The notes under the pieces were generated by a model. The model saw only the letters and a list, made by a program, of their open reading frames with translations, made no database searches and was not told the DNA's origin. A stretch of 64,000 bases of DNA from an uncultured Acidimicrobiia bacterium (GTDB taxonomy: Bacteria; Actinomycetota; Acidimicrobiia; Spongiisociales; ZC4RG35). Positions 6,451 through 58,078 of the stretch are shown here, piece by piece. The number at the start of each line of letters is the position of its first letter. Within the stretch, counting starts at the first letter, position 1. Position numbers and translations under genes: made by a program. Location of the stretch: the NCBI GenBank assembly GCA_963840175.1, contig CAWIXU010000004.1, positions 9,288 to 73,287 of the forward strand. Direction: 5' to 3'.

Positions 6451-7802
6451 ATGACGGATTCGGCCTGGCGCCAGCGGTTGTTTCTGGCAATGGTGGCGGT
6501 GCTCCCGCTTCATACCGTTTATCTAAGCGCCTGGATTTCGTGGAAGCCGTTCATGGTCCTCCTGGCCGTCCTGGCCCTGTGGGACCTGGGCGACGGCATT
6601 CGGCTCCGGCAGTGGCCATGGCACAAGCGAATCACGCTCGCGTTCCTTCCCTTGATGGTGGCGGTTGCGATCGGGTTCCCAGGTCCTGAGCTATCGCGAA
6701 CGATTCATCCGGCTCGCCTTAGCGCTTGTCGTCGGGTTCGGGGTGCTGGCAGTTACCGAGCGACGACTGCGCGGCGTCAGGAATGGGAGCGCGCACCCTA
6801 CGGGTCATCTTCTGGTCCGCGGCCGCCATGGCGGTGACCGGCCTGATCTTCTCGGTGCTGCTTCTCGGCCTCGGGGGGGACGAAGGAATCGACTACCTCA
6901 CAGGGTCGCGCGGTTACGACCTTCCTCTCCTCGACAAAATTGGCAAGCCCGCCTATCTCTTGTCGGGTTTCCTCGCGCTTTCCAACTGGCATCAGGACCC
7001 GGGCTATGGAGCCGCTTGGGCGGTCCTCTGGGCGACATTGGCCCTCATCGCTTCCCTCCGCGGCCTCGGAACCAAAAGTCCTCTGATCGACGGAGCGATC
7101 ATCGGTGTTCTTTGGTCCGCAGTGGTGATGGGATTCTCCCGCACCGGGTGGGTGGCGCTGGCCGTGTCGTTGGTTCTCGTGGCCTGGAAGGTGACACGGC
7201 GAGGATTGGTCAAACGGATCGTCGCTGCAACCGTTGCCCTGATCTTGTCGATGGGGCTTCTCTTCGTCGCTGATGTCGAGAATGTCGGGGGGGAGCTGCC
7301 ACTTCAGTTCGCCTTTCGGCTCCGTCAGGGCTGGGACCTCCTGGCATCGATCACCGGGCTGTTCGAGTCATCCGCAGCCTTCGAGGACCAGTTCCAGCCA
7401 TCCGAGCAACGGGCCGACGTCTGGCCGGAGTACTGGCAACTGTTCCTCGACCACCCGGTCACCGGGGTGGGCTTCGGGGTTGGCTGGGAAACCAACTCCA
7501 TCGGCCAGGAACCGCACAACTTGTTTCTCGAGCTCGGAGCAGAAACCGGGATCATCGGTCTCGTCGCTTTTGCGTTGTTGTTGGGCTTGATCATTCGCGC
7601 CGGCAGCGGAGTTCTCGGGGCGGTGGCGCTGACCGTGTCGTTCTTGCCTGCGTTCACCCAGACAGTGCTCTTCGAACCAACCTGGTGGTTCGCCGCCGGC
7701 CTGTTCTTGGCCGCGGGAGGGAAGTTCGAGGATGCCGCGGAGATGCCTGTAGAGTCGTCTGACGAGTCAGGGGTTGTCACCCCAAAACAAGCTGCTGCCT
7801 AG
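6451..7802 (+). CDS. O-antigen ligase/polymerase family membrane protein (Wzy_C domain), frameshift near 6800
   Basis: ORF 6726..7802 has about 10 TM segments and the Wzy_C-like motif HNLFLELGAETGIIGL. The N-terminal TM segments are in ORF 6451..6837. Confidence 0.65.
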
Positions 7803-45528: not shown

Positions 45529-48124
45529 ATGTCCATCTTTTCCAAGCTGCTCAAGGCCGGTGAAGGCAAGACCCTGCGCGAATTCGAGCGTCTCGTCGTC
45601 GAGGTCAATGCCCTCGAACCGACCATCTCAGCGCTGGATGACGCTCAACTAGCCAACCAGACCGTCGAGTTCCGGCGCCGGCTCGACGCCGGGGAGCCGC
45701 TCGATGACCTGGCCGTCGAGGCCTTCGCCACGGTCCGGGAGGCAGCGCAACGAGTCATCGGGGAGCGTCACTTCGACGTCCAGGTGATCGGCGCTTTGGC
45801 ACTCCATCGGGGGATGGTGGCCGAGATGAAGACCGGCGAGGGCAAAACCCTGGTTTCGTCGATGCCCGCCTATCTCAACGCCCTTCCTGGCACCGGCGTG
45901 CACATCGTCACCGTCAACGACTACCTCGCCTCCCGCGACGCCGACTGGATGGGCGCCATCCATCGTTTCCTCGGGCTCAACGTCGGGCTCATCCAAACCG
46001 GTATGGAACCCGGAAAGCGGCAATCCGGCCTACGCCGCCGACATCACCTACGGAACCAACAACGAGTTCGGGTTCGACTATCTGCGTGACAACATGGCGA
46101 TGCGGGCGAGCGACCGTGTCCAGCGCGGCCACGTTTATGCGATCGTCGATGAGGTCGACTCGATCCTGATCGACGAAGCCCGCACCCCGTTGATCATTAG
46201 CGGCCGGCTGTCGGATGCGGCCAAGTGGTATCGAGACTTCGCTCGAATTGCGAACCGGTTACGACGCGATGAGCACTACGAAGTCGATGAAGCCAAGCGA
46301 CAGGTATTGACCACCGAGGAAGGCGTCGGATTCGTCGAAGAGATACTCGGAGTCGAAAACCTCTATGACCACGCCGCGGTCGACTTCGTCCACCATCTCG
46401 AGTCATCGCTGCGAGCCAAGGAGCTCTACCAGCGGGACGTGGAATATCTCGTTGACCAGGGCGAAGTCAAGATCGTTGACGAATTCACCGGGCGCGTACT
46501 CGAAGGTCGTCGTTATTCAGAAGGGCTTCACCAGGCCATCGAGGCGAAGGAAGGGGTGAAGATCAAAGAAGAGAATCAGACCCTCGCCACGATCACTCTC
46601 CAGAACTACTTCCGGCTCTACCAGAAGCTTGCCGGGATGACCGGCACCGCCGAAACCGAAGCGGCCGAGCTGGCGCAGATTTATGGACTCGAAGTGCTGG
46701 TCATCCCGCCGAACCGGACCGTGGCGCGAGCCGACCAACCCGACCTGGTCTTTAAGTCAGAGGATGCCAAGTTCCAAGCAGTCGTCGATGACATCGTCGC
46801 GCGCCATGAGGCGCAACAGCCCATCCTGCTGGGCACCGTCTCGATCGAGAAGTCCGAGCGTCTCTCGAAGATGTTGCAAAAGCGGGGCATCGAGCATGAA
46901 GTGCTCAACGCCAAGAATCATGCCCGGGAGGCTGAAATCATCGCGCAGGCGGGGCGTCCCGGCGCGGTGACCGTGGCCACCAACATGGCCGGGCGGGGAG
47001 TCGACATCAGGCTGGGTGGGAATCCCGAAGGTCTGGCGCGCGTCGAGCTCAAGCGCCAGCAGGTGCCGGAAGAGGAGTTCGAGAAAAAGCTCGCCGAAAC
47101 CACTGCCCGCTACGCCGCCGAGATCGCTCCGATCAAGGAAAAGGTGATCGAAAGCGGTGGGCTTTACGTCGTGGGCACCGAGCGTCACGAATCCCGCCGG
47201 ATCGACAATCAGCTGCGTGGTCGTTCGGGCCGCCAGGGTGATCCGGGCGAGTCCCGGTTCTATTTGTCGCTGGGAGACGACCTGATGCGTCGTTTCTCTG
47301 GGGATCGAGTTTCGTCGTTGATGGATCGGATGAAGATTCCCGACGACGTACCCATCGAGGCCGGCATGGTGACCAAGGCCATCGAACGAGCGCAGAAAAC
47401 GGTGGAAGCACAGAACTTTGAGCTTCGCAAGAACGTCCTCAAATTCGATGAGGTGATGAACAAGCAAAGAGAAGTCATCTACGACTGGCGCGTGGATTTG
47501 CTCGAGGCGTCGGGTGAGGATCTGGTCACAGAATGGATCGAGGTCGTAGTCGCCGATACCGTCGAGGCGGTTTTTCCACCCGAGCTCGCACCGTCGGAAT
47601 GGGATTGGGAATTGCTCAACAAAGAGCTAGTTCAGATTTATCCGTCAACGCTCAAAGAGCCGGGACCGGAAGGATCCTCGCTGGAGGATGTCATCGACGC
47701 GGCCGTCGAAGAGGCCAACGCGGCCTATGCAGCGAAGAGCAAGGAATTGGGGCTCGAGAACATGCGCCAGGTCGAGCGCCAGGTGATTCTGTCGGTGATC
47801 GACAACAAGTGGCGCGAGCACCTATCCGAAATGGACTACCTGCGCGCTGGAATCGGCCTGCGCGCCATGGGCCAACGCGATCCGCTGGTCGAATATCAGC
47901 GCGAGGGCTACTCGATGTTCAGCGAACTGGTCGAATCGGTGAAGCGTGACACCGTTCGCTATTTGTTCCACGTCCAATTGGCGGAGCCCGCCGCCCCGGC
48001 TGCCCCCAAAGTCGTCAACGATGATCAGTCAAAGTCAATTCGAAGCAGCGGCGCCGTGGGCCGCAACGATCCCTGCCCATGTGGCAGTGGCAAGAAATAC
48101 AAACGCTGCCACGGTGCGGCGTAA
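45529..48124 (+). CDS. secA: Preprotein translocase subunit SecA, one frameshift near 46010-46090
   Basis: N-terminal ORF 45529..46089 ([18 protein letters not shown]...[10 protein letters not shown]...[19 protein letters not shown]). ORF 46094..48124 covers the rest through the C-terminal zinc motif [14 protein letters not shown]. Confidence 0.9.
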
Positions 48125-48145
48125 CCAGGTGCTAGAAGTTCGCTC

Positions 48146-49284
48146 ATGACCGTAGAGACGACGGAACCGCACGCTTTGATCGCCGACATCCGCAACCGCC
48201 TGGCTGAGGCCCGGAGGTTTCTTTGACCTTGACCGCAAAGCCACCGAGCTCGCCGAGTTAAAGGAGCAGGCGGCCGATCCCGGCCTGTGGAACGACCCCG
48301 ACCAAGGGCGCCAGGTCACCCAGCGCCTGGCGGCGTTGGAGCGGACCATCGACAGCGTCGCCAAGCTCGAGCGAACTCTGGATGATTCGGAGGTCCTGCT
48401 CGAGCTCTCCGAAGAGGCCGCCGATCCCTCTGTGCGGGCGGAGGTCGTGTCCGAGCTGGCTGCTCTCTATCGCAGCCTGGCCGGTCTCGAACGCGAGTCG
48501 CTCTACTTCGACGAGTACGACGATCACAACGCCATCCTCTCGGTGCACGCCGGCGCCGGCGGCGTCGATGCGCAGGATTGGGCGGAGATCCTCGTCCGCA
48601 TGTACCAGCGCTTTCTCGAGGAGAACCGGTTCTCGGTAATCGTCGAGGAGATCAGCGAAGGGGAGGAGGCGGGCGTGAAGTCGGTGACCATGACGGTGCG
48701 GGGGGAACACGCCTATGGAACGCTCGAGTCCGAAAGGGGAACCCACCGCTTGGTGCGGATCAGTCCCTTCGACTCGAACTCCCGGCGGCACACCTCCTTT
48801 GCGGGTGTCGATGTGGTGCCCGAACTCGCCGACGAGGAGGGGATGGAGATCGATCCCGATGATCTCCGCATCGACACCTATCGGTCACAGGGAGCAGGCG
48901 GTCAGCATGTGAACAAGACCGACTCGGCCGTGCGGATCACCCACCTTCCCACGGGGATCGTGGTTCAGTGCCAGAACGAGCGGAGTCAACTGCAAAACCG
49001 GACCCGGGCCATGGCGATTCTGAAGGCGCGGCTCCACGAACTCGCTCGTCAGCAACGGATCACCGCAAATCGATGAGATCCGCGGTGAGCAAGGCGCAGC
49101 CGCCTGGGGCCAGCAGATTCGCAGCTATGTCATGCAGCCCTATCAAATGGTCAAAGACCTCCGCACCGATGTCGAGGTCGGCAACATCTCAGGCGTGCTC
49201 GACGGCGATCTCGACGAGTTCATCGACGGCTACCTCCGCTGGCGCCGCCTCCAGCACGAGGAATTGCGAACCCAGGGTTCGTAG
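48146..49284 (+). CDS. prfB: Peptide chain release factor 2 with programmed +1 frameshift at codon 26, plus an additional non-programmed frameshift near 49070
   Basis: ATG 48146 ([26 protein letters not shown], then UGA). +1 frame continues [12 protein letters not shown]...(ORF 48336..49076)...SPF..HTSFAGV...[32 protein letters not shown]-terminal tail [22 protein letters not shown]...LDEFIDGYL is in a third frame to about 49284. Confidence 0.85.
48213..48227 (+). promoter_or_regulatory. RF2 programmed +1 ribosomal frameshift site: internal SD-like GGAGG, 3-nt spacer, CUU UGA C
   Basis: Sequence GGAGGTTTCTTTGAC. CTT is in the zero frame from ATG 48146, followed by in-frame TGA and C. This is the canonical arrangement. 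Confidence 0.85.
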
Positions 49285-49393
49285 GTGCGTTGGACGTCTC
49301 TAACGGCCCACAGAACGGACGGAAGTTCGGTTTCGCACTCTGAGCCGGTTACCCTGAACCGGCCATCCGGGCATTCACGATGGGTCAGGACCA

Positions 49394-50111
49394 ATGATTC
49401 GGCTGCGTGACGTCACCAAGGTTTATGAGGGCGGAGTTGTGGCCGTCCGTGACATCAATCTCGACATCCAAAAAGGGCGCTTTCGTCTTCCTGGTCGGCC
49501 CCTCGGGGTCGGGCAAGTCGACGCTGATCCGGCTGTTGCTCCGTCAGGACACCGTGACCCGGGGCACGATCTGGGTCGCAGGCAAAGACATCACCCAGCT
49601 GCCCGCCTGGAAGGTGCCATTCCTCCGTCGTTCGGTCGGCACCGTCTTCCAGGACTTCAAGCTCCTGCCCAATAAGACGGTGAGTGAGAACGTCGCTTTC
49701 GCTCTCGAAGTCCTCGGCAAGCCCCGGGCAGTGATCGGTCCACAGGTCCAGCAAGTGCTCGAACTGGTCGGGCTCAAGGACAAGGCCGATCGCTATCCCC
49801 GCCAGCTGTCCGGTGGCGAACAGCAGCGAGTCTCGATTGCTCGTGCTTTCGTCAACCGGCCACCGATCCTCCTCTGCGATGAGCCCACGGGCAACCTCGA
49901 CCCGGCGACGTCGGTGGGGATCATGCGTTTGCTCGATCGGATCAACCGCTCGGGGACGACGGTCGCGATGGCGACTCATGACCACGCCATCGTCGATGCC
50001 ATGCAACGACGAGTGGTGCAGCTGGAGAACGGACGGATCATCCGCGACGAGCAGGCCGGGCGTTATGAAGAGCAGGTCGCCGAAGTCAGCGACGGGAGTG
50101 TCGCCCCGTGA
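49394..50111 (+). CDS. ftsE: Cell division ATP-binding protein FtsE, frameshift near 49480
   Basis: [28 protein letters not shown] (ORF 49394..49675), then [15 protein letters not shown]...[14 protein letters not shown]...[11 protein letters not shown] (ORF 49407..50111). Confidence 0.85.
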
Positions 50112-51050
50112 ATCGTTTCGGCTTCCTGGCGCGCGAGGCTTTCATCAACCTGCGTCGCAACCTTTTGGTGGTGATGGGAGCGGTGCTCGCGGTGTTCATC
50201 TCGCTGGCCCTTGCCTTCGGAGCCCTGGTCATCAACCAGATGCTGCGGATCAACACGCTCGCCTGGCAAGACGGAGTGCACATCATCGCCTTCCTTCATG
50301 ACGAAGGTCTGCCCGGAATCCCCACGGGCGCCCATGACGCACTTGTGGCCGAGGTTGCGAGTTGGGAGGAAGTCGCTCAACGTCAGCTACATCGACAAGG
50401 CCGAGGCTTACGTCGAGTTCCAGCAGATTTTCGCCGACCGTCCCGAGTATTTGGAGAATGTCGATCCGACTGTGTTGCCGGCGTCGGTTCGGATCGAGTT
50501 AACGGATCTCGAGCTCTACCGAGATGTTCAGTTCCGGCTGGCGAGCGAAAGCCAATTGATCTTTCGGGTAGCGACCTTCGGCGAGCAGATCGAACAACTC
50601 TCTTCACTGTCGACCGTACTCAATCTGCTCGGACTGGGTCTCGCCCTTGTGCTCGGCGTCTCGGCAGTGATCCTTATCGCCAACACCATCCGCATGGCCA
50701 TCTACGCCCGACGCGACGAGGTGGCGATCATGAAATTGGTTGGCGCCTCCAACTGGTTTGTCCGCGTCCCCTTCATCCTCGAAGGGATGATCGAAGGACT
50801 GATCGGGGCGGGTCTGGCGGTCGCCGCGGTGTGGGTGGCTTTCCGCAATCTTCGGTCCCTCGGTGACTCGATCGAGATCGTCTCGTTTGCGGTGCCCGAC
50901 CGGTTCTTCCTCACCTGGTCGATTGTGATTCTTCTCTTCGGAGCGGCAGCAGGAGTGCTGGGCAGCGTGCTGGGGCTCAGCCGATACCTGAAAGACGACG
51001 AGGGGAGCCGGCCGGTTGCGGTCGGTGCGCGGGTCTTAGAGCCGCTGTGA
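50108..51050 (+). CDS. ftsX: Cell division permease-like protein FtsX, frameshift near 50400
   Basis: ORF 50108..50866 (N-terminal [15 protein letters not shown]) and ORF 50211..51050 (extracellular domain plus 3 C-terminal TM helices). Directly follows ftsE with a 4-nt overlap. Confidence 0.8.
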
Positions 51051-52243
51051 AGTCCGCACGGCTCGCCGTGCTTTTCGTCGCCCTCGTCCTCTTCTTTGGG
51101 GCGGCTTCACCTGTGGTGGCGCAAGATCCGGCGGCCGAGCTCCGCGAGGTCCAGAACGAGCTCAACCGGGTCGAACAGGCAATCAGAGCCGCTCGCACCG
51201 AAGCCAGTTCAGTCGGCCAGCAGGTTGTCGCCGCCCAAGCCGCCATGGCTGCTGCACTCGACACCTACAACGCCGCCCAGGCCCGGGTCGAGGAACTGAT
51301 TCGCGCCGTTCAACGGACAGCGGCGCAGGTGGTTTCCCTCAAGGGACAGGTGGCGACGCTCGAACGCCTCCTGGCGAAGACTGCGGTCGAGCTCTCGAAC
51401 ACCAAGGAACGACTCGAACAGACCGCGGTCAACCTCTATATGACCGCTAGCGCCGTGCCCGGAGCCGACCTCTTTAGTCGGGCATCCGTCGCCGAGGCCG
51501 CTACTGCTCTGGCTTATTCGTCGGTGCTCTTCGATCAGGACACCGATGTCTTCACTGCGTTCGAGCTACTCCAGCGCGAAGAGGAAAGGCAACGCACACA
51601 GATCGTCGGGATGAAGACTGAAACCGAAGGCGAACTGGCGCGTCTTGGTGAGGAACGAGCGAATCTCGAGATTGAGCGCGACCTTGCCGCCGCCGCCCTG
51701 GCGGAAGCGCAAACCCAAGCCGCCAAGGTGCAGACGCTGCTCGACTCGATCCGCAACCAGATCGCCGCGGCGGAAGAACACAAGGACGGTCTCGAAGCCG
51801 ATGCAGCGGCGCTTGAAGCTGAGATCGACCGACTCGCTACCAAAGAGGGAACTGCGCCCTCGGTCTTGTCGTGGCCGGTCAACGGCGCGGTGAGCTCGCC
51901 GTTCGGCTATCGGGTTCATCCCATTCTCGGAGTGAAAAAGCTTCATACCGGCGTCGACATCAACGGCGCGAGTGGCGCGCCGATCGTCGCGTCCGGTGCA
52001 GGCACCGTGATCCTCGCTCAGACTTATGGGGGTTACGGTCGTGCCGTCGTGATCGACCACGGCGGCGGGTTGACGACTCTTTACGCCCATCAGTCGCAGA
52101 TGGCGGTGTCGGTAGGGGAGGAGGTGAGCCGGGGCGAAGTTATCGGTTACGTCGGTTGCAGTGGAAGCTGCACCGGCCCGCATCTCCATTTCGAGGTTCG
52201 GGTGAGTGGCGTTCCGGTCGATCCGCTTGGCTATCTCCGATGA
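51047..52243 (+). CDS. M23-family peptidase with N-terminal coiled-coil (EnvC-like)
   Basis: Intact ORF. Signal peptide, long coiled-coil region, and M23 motifs GVKKLHTGVDINGASGAPIVASGAGTV...HGGGLTTLYAHQSQ...GCSGSCTGPHLHFEVR. Confidence 0.8.
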   Translation: MKSARLAVLFVALVLFFGAASPVVAQDPAAELREVQNELNRVEQAIRAARTEASSVGQQVVAAQAAMAAALDTYNAAQARVEELIRAVQRTAAQVVSLKGQVATLERLLAKTAVELSNTKERLEQTAVNLYMTASAVPGADLFSRASVAEAATALAYSSVLFDQDTDVFTAFELLQREEERQRTQIVGMKTETEGELARLGEERANLEIERDLAAAALAEAQTQAAKVQTLLDSIRNQIAAAEEHKDGLEADAAALEAEIDRLATKEGTAPSVLSWPVNGAVSSPFGYRVHPILGVKKLHTGVDINGASGAPIVASGAGTVILAQTYGGYGRAVVIDHGGGLTTLYAHQSQMAVSVGEEVSRGEVIGYVGCSGSCTGPHLHFEVRVSGVPVDPLGYLR

Positions 52244-52704
52244 AGAAACCCGAAGGCGTCAAGGTCATCGCCTCGAACCGGCGGGCGCGCCACGACTACG
52301 AGATCCTCGATACTTTCGAAGCCGGCCTCGTCCTCATCGGCTCGGAGGTAAAGAGCTTGCGGGAGGGCCAAGGGCAGCTCAAGGACAGCTTCGCCCATAT
52401 TCGCGACGGCGAGATCTTTTTGGTCGGTTGTTATATCGCTCCCTACGTCTTCTCCCGGGCTGGCGGCCATGAACCGGAGCGAACCCGGAAGCTTTTGATG
52501 CACCGTCGCCAGATCGATCGCCTGGCGTCCGAGCTGGCCGAAAAGGGGCTCACCCTGGTTCCGCTTCAGCTCTACTTCAAAGAGGGCAAGGCCAAGGTTG
52601 AGCTGGGGCTGGCACGGGGAAAGCGCACCATCGACAAGCGAGAGACCGTCAAGAAGAGGGAGCAGGAGCGAGAGATGGAGCGCGCGCTCCGGCGTCGGCC
52701 CTAG
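52240..52704 (+). CDS. smpB: SsrA-binding protein SmpB
   Basis: MKKPEGVKVIASNRRARHDYEILDTFEAGLVLIGSEVKSLREGQGQLKDSFAHIRDGEIFLVGCYIAPY... in ORF 51871..52704, from ATG 52240 (ATGA overlap with the M23 gene). Confidence 0.9.
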   Translation: MKKPEGVKVIASNRRARHDYEILDTFEAGLVLIGSEVKSLREGQGQLKDSFAHIRDGEIFLVGCYIAPYVFSRAGGHEPERTRKLLMHRRQIDRLASELAEKGLTLVPLQLYFKEGKAKVELGLARGKRTIDKRETVKKREQEREMERALRRRP

Positions 52705-52742
52705 GTCTTGGCAGCGAACAGGTGTTCGACTAGGCTGTCGGA

Positions 52743-53650
52743 GTGGCGGAGTTTCGGTGGAGCCAGCTGGCGACCTCGCAGGACGGTCTCTTCGAGCAAG
52801 TCACGCCGGGTCGTCGGTCGTGGCGAGTACAAGGGACTGACCTTCCACGAGATCGAGGCTCGCTCGATCATCAGCAAAGCCCCTCCCTCGACCCCGTGGT
52901 TCGGCTACTCGATCAACGCCTACAGGGGATGCTCCCATGCTTGTGAATTACTGCTTCGCTCGGCCTACCCATGAATACCTCGGGTTCAACATGGGCGAGG
53001 ACTTCGAACAGCAGATCGTCGTCAAGACCAATGCGGTCGAGTTGTGTCGCGCCGAGACCGAGCCTGCGCGCTGGGCTGGCGATTCGATCGCGATGGGAAC
53101 GAACACCGATCCGTATCAAGCCGCCGAGGGCAAGTACAAGCTCACCAAGGGGATCATCGAGGTGCTTGGCCGAGCGTGGCAACGGATTCTCGATCCTCAC
53201 CAAGTCACCGCTGGTCCTTCGGGATCTCGACCTGATCGCAGAGGCTGCCAAGACGAGCGCAGGTCTCGGTCTCGTTTTCGGTGGCGACTCTCGACGAGGA
53301 CGTCTGGCGTCGAACCGAGCCCGGTGCACCGCATCCCCGCAAACGACTCGATGCCCTCGCCAAGCTGCGGGAGGCGGGTGTCAGCGGAGGCGTCATGGTG
53401 GCGCCGGTTCTGCCCGGCATCTCTGACAGTCCAGAGCAGGTGGCCGCCGTGAAGAAAGCGGCGCGGGAGGCTGGCGCCGAATGGGTCAACGAGGTGCAAG
53501 CTCCACCTGCGCGGTGTCCGCCCACACTTCCTGAAATGGCTGGCCCAGGACAGCCCGAATCTGGTTGCCAATTATGAGGCAAGCTATCCAGAGCGGCGGC
53601 CCACGCGAGCCCAAGCGAGCCCGACGCAGCTTCTCTCCCCGACCAACTTC
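52743..53650 (+). CDS. Radical SAM protein of the SplB-like / Rv2578c family, at least 5 frameshifts; 3-prime end uncertain
   Basis: EYKGLTFHEIEARSIISKAPPSTPWFGYSINAYRGCSHAC (ORF 52708..52974), then YCFARPTHEYLGFNMGEDFEQQIVVKTNAVEL (52937..53452), then NGFSILTKSPLVLRDLDLIAEA (52971..53426), then LDEDVWRRTEPGAPHPRKRLDALAKLREAGVSGGVMVAPVLPGISD (53281..53577). Radical SAM motif CxxxCxYC. Confidence 0.6.
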
Positions 53651-53673
53651 GGCTCGGCCGTTCTTCGTAATCG

Positions 53674-54024
53674 TGGAGGCGGCGGGAATCGGACCCGCGT
53701 CCCATGAGTCGTCAGCGCCGGCATCTCCGAGCGCAGCCGTCGGCGAGCTTGTCGGCAAGAAGGACCCCAACGGCGGGCTTCCCACTCGCTTATCCGGAGT
53801 TGATCTTTGCCCTCCGGTCCCGGATCCCGGAGGACGCATCCTGCATTGCGACGCCCGATTCCGGCGAGGCAGGCGCCCACCGGGCGGACGGGCTGCGTTA
53901 TTTAGGCAGCCAGTGCGAAGTTGTCTTCGGCACTTGTGTTTGTTTCCGGCTCTTTAACGAGGTTCCGGAGACCTCGGCTCGCTTCCGACGCATCAACACT
54001 CATGGTCGAAACCATTTCGCCCCC
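53674..54024 (-). ncRNA. ssrA: tmRNA (ssrA), about 351 nt; tag reading frame ...GCC GAA GAC AAC UUC GCA CUG GCU GCC UAA (AEDNFALAA)
   Basis: Minus-strand 5-prime end GGGGGCGAAAUGGUUUCGACC (compare M. tuberculosis GGGGCUGAACGGUUUCGAC). 3-prime tRNA-like end GGACGCGGGUCCGAUUCCCGCCGCCUCCA(+CCA). Acceptor stem GGGGGCG/CGCCUCC with G3-U70. Tag ends ALAA, then UAA UAA. Located just downstream of smpB as in other Actinobacteria. Coordinates +/-2 nt. Confidence 0.8.
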
Positions 54025-54085
54025 ATGGGCTGATCGCAATTCTACGGGTATTCAGAGAATCCGTGTTCGCCTATCTTCTGCGGAA

Positions 54086-55226
54086 ATGACGATCTACGAC
54101 AACGAGGATCTCGAGGCGATTCGCCAGCAAACCCGGCGCTTCGTCGAGGAGAAAGTCATTCCGGAGGCGGACAAATGGGAGGAGGCCGGTCGGGTCCCCC
54201 GTGAGATCCTCGACGAGATGGCCAGGATCGGCTTCTTCGGTCTGCGGGTCCCGGAGGAGTACGGGGGAGTCGGTTTCGGACCCCTCGCCACCGTCGCCTA
54301 TGCCGAGGAGCTCGGGCGTTCGACCTACGGCGGCTTCGCCATCACCGCCCTGGTCCACACCGAGCTCGCCATGCCGTACCTCTTCAACTTCGGCTCGGAA
54401 GAGCAGAAGCAGCGCTGGCTCCCGGCCATGGTCAACGGCGAGATCATCACCGCCATCGCGGTCACCGAGCCCGACGCCGGTTCGGATGTCGCCAACATTC
54501 GCACGAAGGCGGTGCGCGACGGTGACGGCTGGCGGATCAACGGCTCCAAACTCTTCATCACCAACGGGGGAATCGCCGACCTGGTCTTCGTCGCGGTCAA
54601 GACCAATCCCGAAGCGAAAGGGTCGAGGGGCATATCGATTCTCGCCGTCCCAAAGGACGCTGAGGGATTCAGTGTGAGCCGGGCGCTAACGAAGATGGGA
54701 TGGCACTCCTCGGACACAGCTGAGCTCTCGTTCAACGATTGCTGGGTTCCCGCCGACCACCTCGTCGGCGACGAGAACCGCGGCTTCTACTACATCATGA
54801 CCAACTTCCAGAACGAGCGGCTCGCCATCGCCGCGCAGGCAATCGGCGAGGCGAGCGAGAGCGATCGAGCTCACGCTCGAATACACAAAACAGCGCAAAG
54901 CGTTCGGCAAACCGCTTTTCGACAAGCAGGCCATTCGTCAGCGCCTGGCTATGGCCTCCACCGAGGTCGAGGCTGCCCGACTACTGGTCTATCACGCGGC
55001 ATGGTTGATGGAGCAGGGCGAGGATGCCGTCAAGGAAGTGTCGATGGTGAAGGCGCTAGTCGGCGAGCTCGTCAACGACGTGCTCTACGAATGCGTCCAG
55101 TTCCACGGGGGCATGGGATACATCGCTGAGACCGCGGTGGAACGCCTCTATCGCGACGTTCGCATCCACTCGATCGGCGGTGGTGCCACCGAGGTGATGC
55201 TCGACGAGGTCGCCAAGCGCCTCTAG
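54086..55226 (+). CDS. Acyl-CoA dehydrogenase, frameshift near 54860
   Basis: ATG 54086 (MTIYDNEDLEAIRQQTRRFVEEKVIPEADKWEE...). ACAD N/M/C domains in ORF 53921..55129. C-terminus in ORF 54951..55226 (LYECVQFHGGMGYIAETAVERLYRDVRIHSIGGGATEVM). Confidence 0.8.
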
Positions 55227-56077
55227 CGGATCCACTGCGTCGACTCGATGCGAGCGGCCTCGACGGCAGATCCGGACTGCCGCCTCGACATGCGTCGGAG
55301 GACCCTTGGCGCGACCGCCATACCGATGACCGCCCAGCCGGCGAGGACAGCCACCGTCTGCAGGGTGCGCCAGGACCCGCCGATCTCCAAAGCGGCCGCC
55401 GCTTCCGGTAGGAACGCCGAGCGCATACCGAGCCCCAGCCAATACATCGGAAAGACCTGGGCCACCCCCTCCAGCCAATCCCACAGATCTTGGATTGGAT
55501 AGAAGATTCCCGATATGCCGAGGAGCACCAGGATCGGCAGCATTCCCCAGGTTCCGACCTTCTGCACGCCCGGAACCGTCGCCCCGATGATGATCCCGAT
55601 CGGCAGGGTCGCAAGCAGACCGAGCACGACAACCCAGGCGAACGTGAGCCAGCCGTTGAGACCGTTGTACATGAAGTTGTCGAACAAGAAAGAAGCGGGG
55701 ATCAGAATCACGGCGAGCGAGGGGAGCAAGCCAAGTGCGTTTCCGAAGATGTGGGCCGACATGTATCCGACGATTCCGTACGGTGCCGCCTTCGATCTCA
55801 GCACGGTTCCGTCCTCACGCTCCATTGCCAATGAATACGCGGGTCCGACGACCAGGCCGAAGGCGATCATGGCCCCCAGGAGGCTCGGCATGGCCAAGGT
55901 CGGGTAGGACAGAGTGGTTCCTTCCACTTCGGTGTTTCGACGAAGGAATAGGTAGCCCAGAGTTGCCAGGGCCATGAACAGGAAGAAACCCTGGTCCTGG
56001 GGACTCTTGAGGCTCAGGACGAATTCCGTCCAGCCTCGCTTGAGGCCGTTGCGAACCGCATGCAGACGGGGATTCAT
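55223..56077 (-). CDS. ABC-2 type transporter permease
   Basis: Intact ORF, 6 TM segments. Adjacent to and co-oriented with the ATPase gene. Confidence 0.75.
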   Translation of the reverse strand: MNPRLHAVRNGLKRGWTEFVLSLKSPQDQGFFLFMALATLGYLFLRRNTEVEGTTLSYPTLAMPSLLGAMIAFGLVVGPAYSLAMEREDGTVLRSKAAPYGIVGYMSAHIFGNALGLLPSLAVILIPASFLFDNFMYNGLNGWLTFAWVVVLGLLATLPIGIIIGATVPGVQKVGTWGMLPILVLLGISGIFYPIQDLWDWLEGVAQVFPMYWLGLGMRSAFLPEAAAALEIGGSWRTLQTVAVLAGWAVIGMAVAPRVLRRMSRRQSGSAVEAARIESTQWIR

Positions 56078-56992
56078 TTCTCGACCTCCTCAAATCCGGT
56101 CGTACTCGCTTCACCAGCCACTTCGAATTGCTGGACCATCGCTAGATAGGTGTCTTCGAGAGTTGCCCGTCTTACCTCGAGTTCTTCGACCGCATCGCCA
56201 TGTTCGTTCAACAGCGACCGGACGAAACGGCGTCGCGTCCGGCGTGGTTTCGACATGGCGCTCACCGTCGAGCCGCCACCGGACCTCGGAATCGCGCGTC
56301 ACCCTTCGCGCCAGGTCCTCGACTGTGCCGTCCGCCACGATCCGGCCGCCGGCGAGGATCAGAATTCGATCGGCAAGCTTGTCGGCCTCGTCCAAATCGT
56401 GAGTGGTCAAGAGAATCGTTGTGTCCTCAAGCTGGGAGAGCTGAAGAACGAGCCCGTGAAAGTCGCGCTTGGCTTGCGGGTCGAATCCGGCGGTGGGCTC
56501 GTCGAGAAATAGCAGCTCGGGCCTTCCGACGATCCCGATGGCGACGTCGAGTCGACGTCGCTGTCCACCAGAAAGCGTGCGGATCTTCTGGTGGGCCTGC
56601 CCCTCGAGACCGATCATGGAGATCAGTTCCTCAGGCGGGTAGGGGCGGCGCCGTTCCGGTGTCGAGTAAGGCTCGTAGTAGCGGCCGAGATGCTCGAGCA
56701 AACCGAGCGGCGTCCAGCGGGCGTGGTCGCGCCAAGATTGCAGCACCACCCCCACCCGGGCTCGCCAATCCTCGGGGGCATCTTGCGGATTCGTGCCGAG
56801 CACATCGACCCGACCGGCCGAAGGAGATCGAAAACCTTCCAGGATCTCAATCGTGGTGGTCTTGCCCGCGCCATTGGGACCCAGCAACGTCACGACCTCG
56901 CCTCTGCGCACCTCGAAATCGACGCCGTTGAGTACATCGACGTCGCCGTAGCGCATCCGCAAGCCTTCGACTTCGATGACAGGCTGGTCCAT
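56074..56992 (-). CDS. ABC transporter ATP-binding protein, frameshift near 56260
   Basis: Walker A GPNGAGKTT, signature LSGGQRRRL and Walker B LLFLDEPT in ORF 56111..56992. C-terminal ...ATLEDTYLAMV in ORF 56074..56265. Confidence 0.85.
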
Positions 56993-57018
56993 GGGCGCAA
57001 ATATTCCTACGGGGCACT

Positions 57019-57420
57019 TTACGAAGCCGTTAGTCGGGACTGAGCGCGCCGGATCTCCTCCTCTTCGAGCGGGTGGACGTAGAGGTCATAAGCCATCCAC
57101 AACGACCGTGCCCAGGGGTAGAAGAACAGCGGCACCAGACCGGTGAACGAGACGACGACAATCGTGAGCCACGTCCATGGGACATCCGGCCAGGTCAAGG
57201 CGAGAAAGAGGCCGAAGGACAGAAACATCGCCAAGATGGCCAGGATCGTGTTGAAGATCACCGCGCCCACCCAGTAGCCCGGCTCGCGTTCGAAGCGATG
57301 CCCGCAGCGGGGGCAGAAATCAGCTAGCGCCCACCAGCGGAAGATTCCTCCCTGCCCGCAATGGGGGCACTGGCGGCGGAAGCCGCGGGCCAACTGAACA
57401 GTGAGCTTCGGCCGGGTCAT
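57019..57420 (-). CDS. DUF983-like small membrane protein with N-terminal zinc ribbon
   Basis: ORF 57019..57624. Likely start at MTRPKL. CPHCGQGGIF...CPRCGHRF followed by 2 TM helices. Confidence 0.5.
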   Translation of the reverse strand: MTRPKLTVQLARGFRRQCPHCGQGGIFRWWALADFCPRCGHRFEREPGYWVGAVIFNTILAILAMFLSFGLFLALTWPDVPWTWLTIVVVSFTGLVPLFFYPWARSLWMAYDLYVHPLEEEEIRRAQSRLTAS

Positions 57421-57448
57421 GTCACTCAGGCTAAGTACCGTGCTGGAC

Positions 57449-58078
57449 ATGAGGCCGCCCCGAATCGAGTACGAGAGCGCCCCGCTCGATCTGATCGACC
57501 TTGACCCCGACCCTTTCGCCCAGTTCTCCCGCTGGCTCGACGACGCCTTCGCCGCCGAAGTGCCCGAACCGGAGGCCTTCGTCCTCTCGACAGTCAGTGC
57601 AGGCGGCAGTCCTTCCTCGCGCACTGTTCTCCTGAAGCAATTCGATCAGGACGGCATCGTGTTCTACTCGAACTACCGCAGTGCCAAAGCAGTCGACCTC
57701 AGCGGCGAGCCGCGAGTGGCCGCTTTGTTCCTGTGGCTGCCAATCCACCGCCAGGTCCGGGTCGAGGGCCGGGCGGAAAAGGTCGAGGCGGAACTCTCCG
57801 ATGCATACTTTGCCACTCGCCCTCCCGAGGCCCGGCTGGCCTCGGCCGCTTCCCCGCAAAGCCAGGTGGTCGTTAGTCGGGAGGAGCTCGATGGAATGCT
57901 CGAGCTCCTAACCCGCCAATATCCCGACGGCAATGTTCCCCGCCCCGCCCATTGGGGCGGCTACCGCATCAAGCCCACGCTGTTCGAGTTCTGGCAGGGG
58001 AGGCGGGCACGATTTCACGACCGTTTCCGCTTCCGACTCGACAAGGAGCGCTGGCTGATCGATCGGTTGGCGCCATGA
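57449..58078 (+). CDS. pdxH: Pyridoxamine 5-prime-phosphate oxidase
   Basis: ORF 57401..58078 from ATG 57449 (...FVLSTVSAGGSPSSRTVLLKQFDQDGIVFYSNYRSAK...WGGYRIKPTLFEFWQGRRARFHDRFRF...). Confidence 0.8.
   Translation: MRPPRIEYESAPLDLIDLDPDPFAQFSRWLDDAFAAEVPEPEAFVLSTVSAGGSPSSRTVLLKQFDQDGIVFYSNYRSAKAVDLSGEPRVAALFLWLPIHRQVRVEGRAEKVEAELSDAYFATRPPEARLASAASPQSQVVVSREELDGMLELLTRQYPDGNVPRPAHWGGYRIKPTLFEFWQGRRARFHDRFRFRLDKERWLIDRLAP

Follow-up and report, generated by a model that had tools for sequence, protein, structure and literature searches.

Background

The tmRNA (ssrA product) of Mycobacterium and other Actinomycetota is of the one-piece type (Rfam RF00023), which combines an acceptor stem bearing a G3.U70 pair, a reduced D-loop, a T-arm, the helix P2, the pseudoknots PK1 and PK2-PK4, and a reading frame that ends in ALAA, with its stop codon in the loop of helix 5. 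The gene is found downstream of prfB-ftsE-ftsX-smpB. In E. coli the T-loop of tmRNA is modified, with m5U and pseudouridine, and SmpB binding requires T-loop/D-loop contacts (PMC3968760). U55 contacts G18 in the D-loop and is the most conserved modified position of tRNA (PMC7912444). Almost all tRNA-type T-loops have this residue. The 3' ends of tmRNA genes serve as frequent integration sites, and tmRNAs reduced to the tRNA-like domain, with no coding sequence, are also known, e.g. in mycobacteriophage DS6A, where this RNA reportedly inhibits the host tmRNA (PMC11915505).

The ssrA locus described here comes from an uncultured Acidimicrobiia bacterium and was analyzed in a contiguous 64-kb stretch of DNA, henceforth the window. 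Its product has every one of the one-piece features listed above, and, unlike the tRNA-like-domain-only forms of the DS6A type, is a complete tmRNA. It departs from the actinobacterial pattern in three respects: the tag is short compared to that of Mycolicibacterium (AEDNFALAA as against ADSNQRDYALAA), the gene lies on the strand opposite to smpB, and the T-loop has a C at position 55. The first of these is shared with other Acidimicrobiia tmRNAs (e.g. L131, L123, L125 and L126), which have the same tag, length and architecture. The window gene is thus an ordinary, standard tmRNA of a known kind, and its antisense arrangement and C55 allele are real but amount to minor, lineage-level variants of a familiar gene.

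Identification of the tmRNA gene and its tag reading frame

Two independent types of search converge on the same locus. ARAGORN reports a tmRNA at 53673..54024 of the minus strand as the sole RNA gene in the window, and Rfam cmscan matches 53671..54024 of that strand to RF00023 with 157.7 bits (E = 3e-62; gathering score 47 bits), covering positions 1-374 of the 374-position model without truncation. This is the only Rfam match at gathering level in the window. The initial annotation had called an ssrA gene at 53674-54024 on the minus strand from the letters alone, and these strong full-length matches bear it out. Read from 54024 to 53674, the minus strand opens with GGGGGCGAAATGGTTTCGACC and closes with GGACGCGGGTCCGATTCCCGCCGCCTCCA, exactly as had been given. 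The mature one-piece RNA is 351 nt long, counted to the discriminator A (53674..54024, minus strand), and the last 23 nt of the gene occur as a single copy in the window (none of 100 shuffles contained them). The DNA continues with CGA after the discriminator base; the 3' CCA is not encoded and must therefore be added post-transcriptionally.

The tag reading frame occupies 53902..53931 (minus strand), running from the resume codon GCC (53931-53929) to the stop codon UAA (53904-53902). ARAGORN translates this frame, GCC...GCU GCC UAA, as AEDNFALAA followed by a stop, and the same tag is found at an identical position and in an identical register in about 20 Acidimicrobiia relatives. The tag ending in ALAA that had been read from the sequence is hence also the one seen in relatives, and the comparison with related tags, which had been suggested as a means of settling the resume codon, fixes it as GCC, all of these relatives having the same start. 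The full tag appended to proteins is predicted to be A-AEDNFALAA. One detail of the initial annotation did not hold: the tag had been described as ending in tandem stops, whereas the frame continues UAA AUA ACG and the second UAA lies in the +1 frame, leaving one stop codon, in line with the single stop symbol printed by ARAGORN.

Secondary structure and covariation

To describe the fold, the window RNA was aligned with 26 other Acidimicrobiia tmRNAs (27 sequences in all) and compared to a model of 94 pairs comprising the acceptor stem, P2a-c, both stems of each of the pseudoknots PK1 to PK4, the helix-5 tag hairpin and the T-arm. In the window RNA 93 of the 94 pairs are canonical; the exception is one U-U within the eight pseudoknot stems, which are otherwise canonical throughout. 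Over the 27 sequences 92.0% of cells pair; in controls with the 3' partners shifted by 1-3 columns the figure is 35.6-49.7%. Double-sided changes affect 52 pairs, compared to 18-24 in these controls. In 500 shuffles the observed value was never attained by any measure. The nested helices were recovered independently by RNAalifold, and each second stem of the pseudoknots (helices 6, 11, 13 and 16 of the model) shows compensatory changes among the relatives. An inability to fold the PK1-PK4 region had been named as grounds for rejecting the tmRNA call; both stems of each of the four pseudoknots do fold, with compensatory changes in support.

The acceptor stem had been described as a 7-bp helix with a G3-U70 pair, and the sequence (G1-G7 paired with C344-C350) and the alignment both agree with this. 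Its 5' strand GGGGGCG lies at 54018..54024, with G3 at 54022, and its 3' strand CGCCUCC, with U70 at 53677 and the discriminator A at 53674, is contained in 53674..53681 (here and below all elements of the RNA are on the minus strand). The G3.U70 pair is G.U in all 27 aligned tmRNAs, while at the pair 6:67 a compensatory change separates the window, with C-G, from 21 relatives, with U-A. The reduced D-loop (AAAUGGUUUCGAC) has the conserved GG, with G12, G13 and G18-A19-C20 invariant in the 27 sequences. The T-arm (53682..53698; supported by the sequence, Rfam and the alignment) consists, as had been read, of a 5-bp stem (GCGGG/CCCGC) and the 7-nt loop UCCGAUU, and its stem is paired in 100% of the relatives' cells, with two covarying pairs.

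In the Rfam alignment and in the RNAalifold structure the 5' strand of P2 (53977..54005) pairs with 53702-53732, and double changes occur at 10 pairs of this helix (helices 2-4 of the model). PK1 (53945..53976), with the stems CGAGG/CCUCG and UCCGG/CCGGA (helices 5 and 6 of the model), is paired in 100% and 97.8% of the cells, respectively, with compensatory changes present. The conventional helix 5, which the Rfam alignment places at 53891..53911 (helices 7-8 of the model), forms a hairpin with the end of the tag frame and presents the stop codon in its loop. Among the remaining pseudoknots, PK2 (53840..53890; helices 9-11) is 91-100% paired, with switches from U-A to C-G in 12 sequences in its second stem; PK3 (53793..53834; helices 12-13) is 84-87% paired, with 10 pairs doubly changed; and PK4 (53736..53787; helices 14-16) has a second stem that is 96.8% paired, with five pairs doubly changed.

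Gene neighborhood and inversion of the ssrA block

An intact smpB gene coding for 154 amino acids is present at 52240..52704 on the plus strand (Pfam PF01668, SmpB; E = 6e-59). Its product is identical over 154 of 154 residues to P0124, an SmpB sequence encoded on a 73.7-kb NCBI/ENA contig that is probably the window's own source record, and is most similar to the SmpB proteins of Acidimicrobiia metagenome-assembled genomes. The genes to the left follow the actinobacterial order secA-prfB-ftsE-ftsX-M23 peptidase-smpB, and those to the right the order acyl-CoA dehydrogenase (ACAD)-DUF983-PNPOx-MBL-RNase PH; both flanks are collinear with those of relatives. The comparison with the mycobacterial order prfB-ftsE-ftsX-smpB-ssrA, drawn by the initial annotation, is apt, this order being present in the Mycolicibacterium, Microtetraspora and Actinomadura loci. 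Its further observation that ssrA is antisense to smpB with a radical-SAM gene in between is equally accurate: the window reads smpB (plus), radical-SAM (plus), ssrA (minus), and then ACAD (plus).

In relatives the arrangement is different. The ssrA gene is on the smpB strand in all 45 related genome loci that have a tmRNA, and in L125, whose SmpB is 84% identical to that of the window, as well as in L004, smpB is followed by a co-directional ssrA and then by a radical-SAM gene on the opposite strand. Relative to these two loci, a block of about 1.35 kb (52705..54050) that contains the radical-SAM gene and ssrA with a 26-nt leader is inverted in the window. Homology to L125 can be followed from the smpB stop to the tmRNA 5' end, resuming at 54025-54050 of the window; in L125 the interval between the smpB stop and ssrA is 26 nt long, and these 26 nt are found at this distant place in the window, which puts the left breakpoint essentially at the smpB stop codon. 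The inverted order recurs in L123 (94% DNA identity; a contig of long-read style), L131 (95.2% identity over 10.2 kb), L129 (a short-read MEGAHIT contig) and L128 (77% DNA identity, SmpB 90%), and the gene order of the P0127 contig agrees with it. L131 (ENA ERZ25039586, contig_4077), which differs from the window at 2 of 352 nt of the tmRNA, also has the C6-G67 acceptor pair in common with it, whereas L125, L126 and more distant relatives have U6-A67 together with an ssrA co-directional with smpB. L126 and L127 show a third arrangement. These comparisons show that the antisense position of ssrA is derived: a block of two genes was inverted in the ancestor of this species group. A flipped block of ssrA and a radical-SAM gene in otherwise rigid actinobacterial synteny, apparently with its own -10 element, may be of specialist interest.

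The radical-SAM gene (52743..53670, plus strand; CX3CX2C motif) is convergent with ssrA and, once frameshifts are corrected, ends in a TAA (53668-53670) located 3 nt from the tmRNA 3' end. Its frame is broken by five single-base insertions in the window; intact homologues of 303 amino acids are present in L128 and L126. On the other side ssrA is divergent from the ACAD gene of the conserved right flank (54086..55226, plus strand), which has one frameshift near 54855.

Two further features of these neighbors were observed. A LAGLIDADG intein of about 345 amino acids is inserted in the radical-SAM gene adjoining ssrA in L129 (1802-3748) and L123 (8716-9740), at a point directly preceding the third cysteine in the iron-sulfur motif CX3CX2C (CSHACSY|CVAGDT...VVSHN|CFARP), a site that corresponds to about 52945-52958 of the window. 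The allele of the window, L130, L131 and L128 is free of the intein, which indicates a presence/absence polymorphism within one species cluster. Further to the right, an ABC-2 permease and ATPase pair (55223-56992, minus strand) lies between the ACAD and DUF983 genes, as it does in L123 and L131. It is missing at that position from L008, L009, L018, L019 and the P0127 contig, and is hence a small insertion, specific to the lineage, into a gene order that is conserved in other respects.

The broken frames recur across the locus. Aligned over 10.2 kb with L131, the window contains 11 single bases and three longer insertions that L131 lacks; the reverse holds for only two. The window-specific insertions, about 1.2 per kb against this 95%-identical contig, are mostly outside homopolymers; single-base examples within 47240-57501 include those at 49062, 49475, 50375, 52800, 52945, 53166, 53255, 53497, 54855 and 56229. 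They frameshift prfB, ftsE, ftsX, the radical-SAM gene (five times), the ACAD gene and the ABC ATPase gene. None falls inside ssrA; the leader of the gene has one, at 54036. In-frame stops are absent from about 2,100 well-aligned codons of the window. These insertions are most likely assembly errors, and they call for caution with other findings in the window.

An antisense orientation produced by misassembly, or by a mobile element integrated at ssrA, would fit the use of tmRNA 3' ends as common integration sites (PMC11915505) and the recurrence of the exact 3' 23-mer of the window as att-like fragments in many soil contigs (e.g. L114). Yet the same orientation is found in four other independent assemblies of close relatives, obtained from different samples and with both long and short reads, so the inversion is not an assembly artefact. 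As for integration, the tmRNA 3' end occurs only once in the window even with 3 mismatches allowed, no inverted repeat at the ends of ssrA or of the block exceeds chance expectation and terminal inverted repeats are absent, and the flanks on both sides are core genes in conserved order. We consider either origin extremely improbable; occupation of ssrA by a genomic island or prophage in particular was rejected, with the 3' 23-mer in single copy (at up to 3 mismatches) and conserved core genes flanking it. Fainter still is the prospect of a real protein gene overlapping ssrA at 53565..53957 (plus strand), where the list of open reading frames has an uninterrupted frame of 130 codons. Long spurious frames occur on every strand in DNA of 62-69% G+C; this one has no family in Pfam, its region accumulates single-base indels among relatives, the conservation there is explained by RNA base-pair covariation, and gene callers have picked different frames and strands at this place in L123, L129 and L131. 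A genuine gene here is vanishingly improbable, and the ORF, antisense to a strongly supported RNA and without a Pfam match, is best read as spurious, which is how it had originally been taken. Recognition of ssrA clears such calls, which gene callers have placed differently in these three related public assemblies. Beyond correct annotation the ssrA gene of the window has little meaning, tmRNA being universal in bacteria and found at once by ARAGORN and Rfam.

Expression signals and predicted function

A putative -10-like promoter element, TAGAAT, is present at 54039..54044 on the minus strand, 14 nt upstream of the mature 5' end. By eye, the window, L123, L125 and L126 all have this hexamer 14-15 nt ahead of the mature tmRNA, whichever the orientation of the gene, and its position is thus conserved in relatives. 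This suggests that ssrA kept its own -10 element through the inversion. A consensus scan of 53400-54300 found neither a complete sigma-70 promoter with -35 and -10 elements nor an intrinsic terminator.

The gene is almost certainly functional, judging from its sequence and that of its relatives, and it is highly probable that it supplies this bacterium with a standard, working one-piece tmRNA whose partner SmpB is encoded 1 kb away. By analogy with the established trans-translation pathway, a precursor would be transcribed from the gene's own promoter, with the conserved TAGAAT as its -10 element, after which RNase P would trim the 5' end and CCA would be joined to the 3' end post-transcriptionally. 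Alanyl-tRNA synthetase would then charge the RNA with alanine through recognition of G3.U70 and the discriminator A, and the charged tmRNA, together with SmpB and EF-Tu, would enter the empty A site of stalled ribosomes. Translation is expected to resume at GCC (53931-53929) and to append A-AEDNFALAA, which would mark the protein for proteolysis.

The C55 variant of the T-loop

The T-loop of the window, UCCGAUU, has C55 (53692, minus strand) where the canonical U54-U55-C56-R57-A58 has U, and is canonical at its other positions. All 45 relatives from the genome scan have UUCRAnU, L123, L125, L126, L127 and L128 are likewise U55, and so is L131, the nearest tmRNA (UUCGAUU), although it departs from the window tmRNA at only 2 of 352 nt and shares its C6-G67 acceptor pair; U55 is accordingly seen in 51 relatives. 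The exception is L129, a short-read MEGAHIT assembly of another sample, which reads UCCGAUU and differs from the window at 4 positions in about 300 nt of the 3' part of the tmRNA. As a single-nucleotide deviation that is also found in L129 and in other full-length tmRNAs, C55 is no argument against membership in the tmRNA family.

The exact 23-mer formed by the C55 T-arm and acceptor 3' strand was found in 42 metagenome contigs. None of these contains a close relative of the window tmRNA: similarity extends over at most 34 nt, and outside the tRNA-like domain there is none. ARAGORN overlooked most of the 42, and Rfam identifies some as full tmRNAs, one as a permuted form and the others as 77-nt mini forms or isolated 3' fragments. 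The full-length tmRNAs come from lineages unrelated to the window (L089, 209 bits; L091, 170 bits; L102; and the permuted L116), which shows that C55 is compatible with an otherwise canonical tmRNA. In a collection of viral sequences, this 23-mer has at least 120 matches in its U55 version, compared to 10 in the C55 version.

What C55 represents can be judged against these distributions. The initial annotation was right about the letters of the loop and had left open whether they reflected a sequencing error or a lineage feature; the data point to something intermediate. C55 as a fixed feature of the clade is ruled out by U55 in L131, L123, L128 and L125-127. A base-calling or assembly error in an organism that is truly U55 has more to recommend it, in that the window is error-prone, with some 12 insertions per 10 kb that L131 lacks, the L131 tmRNA with its mere 2 differences reads U55, and so do the 51 relatives as a whole. 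However, the C recurs at position 55 in L129, a short-read assembly of a different sample, which largely disposes of this reading, and the demonstrable errors of the window are insertions, not substitutions, with no in-frame stop in the well-aligned codons mentioned above; we therefore regard an error as unlikely. Decay would be another way to account for a C at a nearly invariant position in a region of broken genes (prfB, ftsE, ftsX, radical-SAM and ACAD), ssrA then being a pseudogene with a disabled T-loop. Against this, the RNA has no indels, retains 93 of 94 canonical pairs and matches the covariance model over its full length, the tag frame and smpB are intact, and C55 is present in high-scoring full-length tmRNAs elsewhere, while the frameshifts strike essential genes and are absent from L131, as would be expected of sequence errors and not of decay. 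A decaying gene is very unlikely. The independent occurrence in L129 and the U55 of the nearest relative together indicate instead that C55 is a real allele, polymorphic within the species cluster and not a clade feature.

As to its consequences, a C55 tmRNA would not be open to pseudouridylation at position 55, and the substitution could weaken function, given the contact of U55 with the D-loop and the importance of such contacts for SmpB binding. The elbow may be slightly weaker, but the effect is probably small and the tmRNA most likely still functions. This natural variation between U and C, at the position of the T-loop that is conserved most strongly, could provide a ready-made test of how far tmRNA needs U55 or pseudouridine 55. 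The identical C55 23-mer occurs in two strains of the species cluster on different acceptor-stem backgrounds, in unrelated full-length tmRNAs and in many att-like fragments. One might imagine from this that the change from U55 to C55 is no product of neutral drift but a recurrent, selected T-loop allele, spread or driven by mobile elements that use the T-loop region of ssrA as attB or by phage mimics of tmRNA. This appears distinctly unlikely; were it true, it would mean that tmRNA can work without pseudouridine 55.

C55 tRNA-like domains in viral and soil contigs

The mini forms are 77-nt, CDS-less tmRNAs, flanked by protein genes, that were found on 27 contigs of marine or deep-sea origin, including 10 IMG/VR viral contigs (L083, L087 at 7277-7353, L092-L098, L101, L104, L107, L110, L112, L117, L119, L120, L122 and L132-L141). 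They consist of an acceptor stem with G3.U70, an analogue of the D-loop, one short hairpin, a C55 T-arm and an encoded CCA, and score 72-75 bits against the Rfam tmRNA model with its entire middle deleted. Their T-arm and acceptor 3' strand with C55 (GGGUCCGAUUCCCGCCGCCUCCA) are identical to those of the window, whereas P2, the tag frame and all the pseudoknots are absent and, unlike in the window, CCA is encoded. C55 is present in all 27 contigs, all of which were recovered by means of the C55 23-mer itself. In their reduction to the tRNA-like domain they resemble the DS6A tmRNA (PMC11915505).

A set of soil contigs (L114, L081, L082, L085, L086, L090, L099, L103, L113, L115, L084 and L121) contains only the last 25 nt or so of a C55 tmRNA, the pattern that elements integrated at ssrA would leave behind as att-site remnants. 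L114 has an intact tmRNA with U55 (L114:13201-13564) and, 12 kb downstream on the same strand, a C55 fragment (L114:947-969), a layout that suggests an island of about 12 kb.
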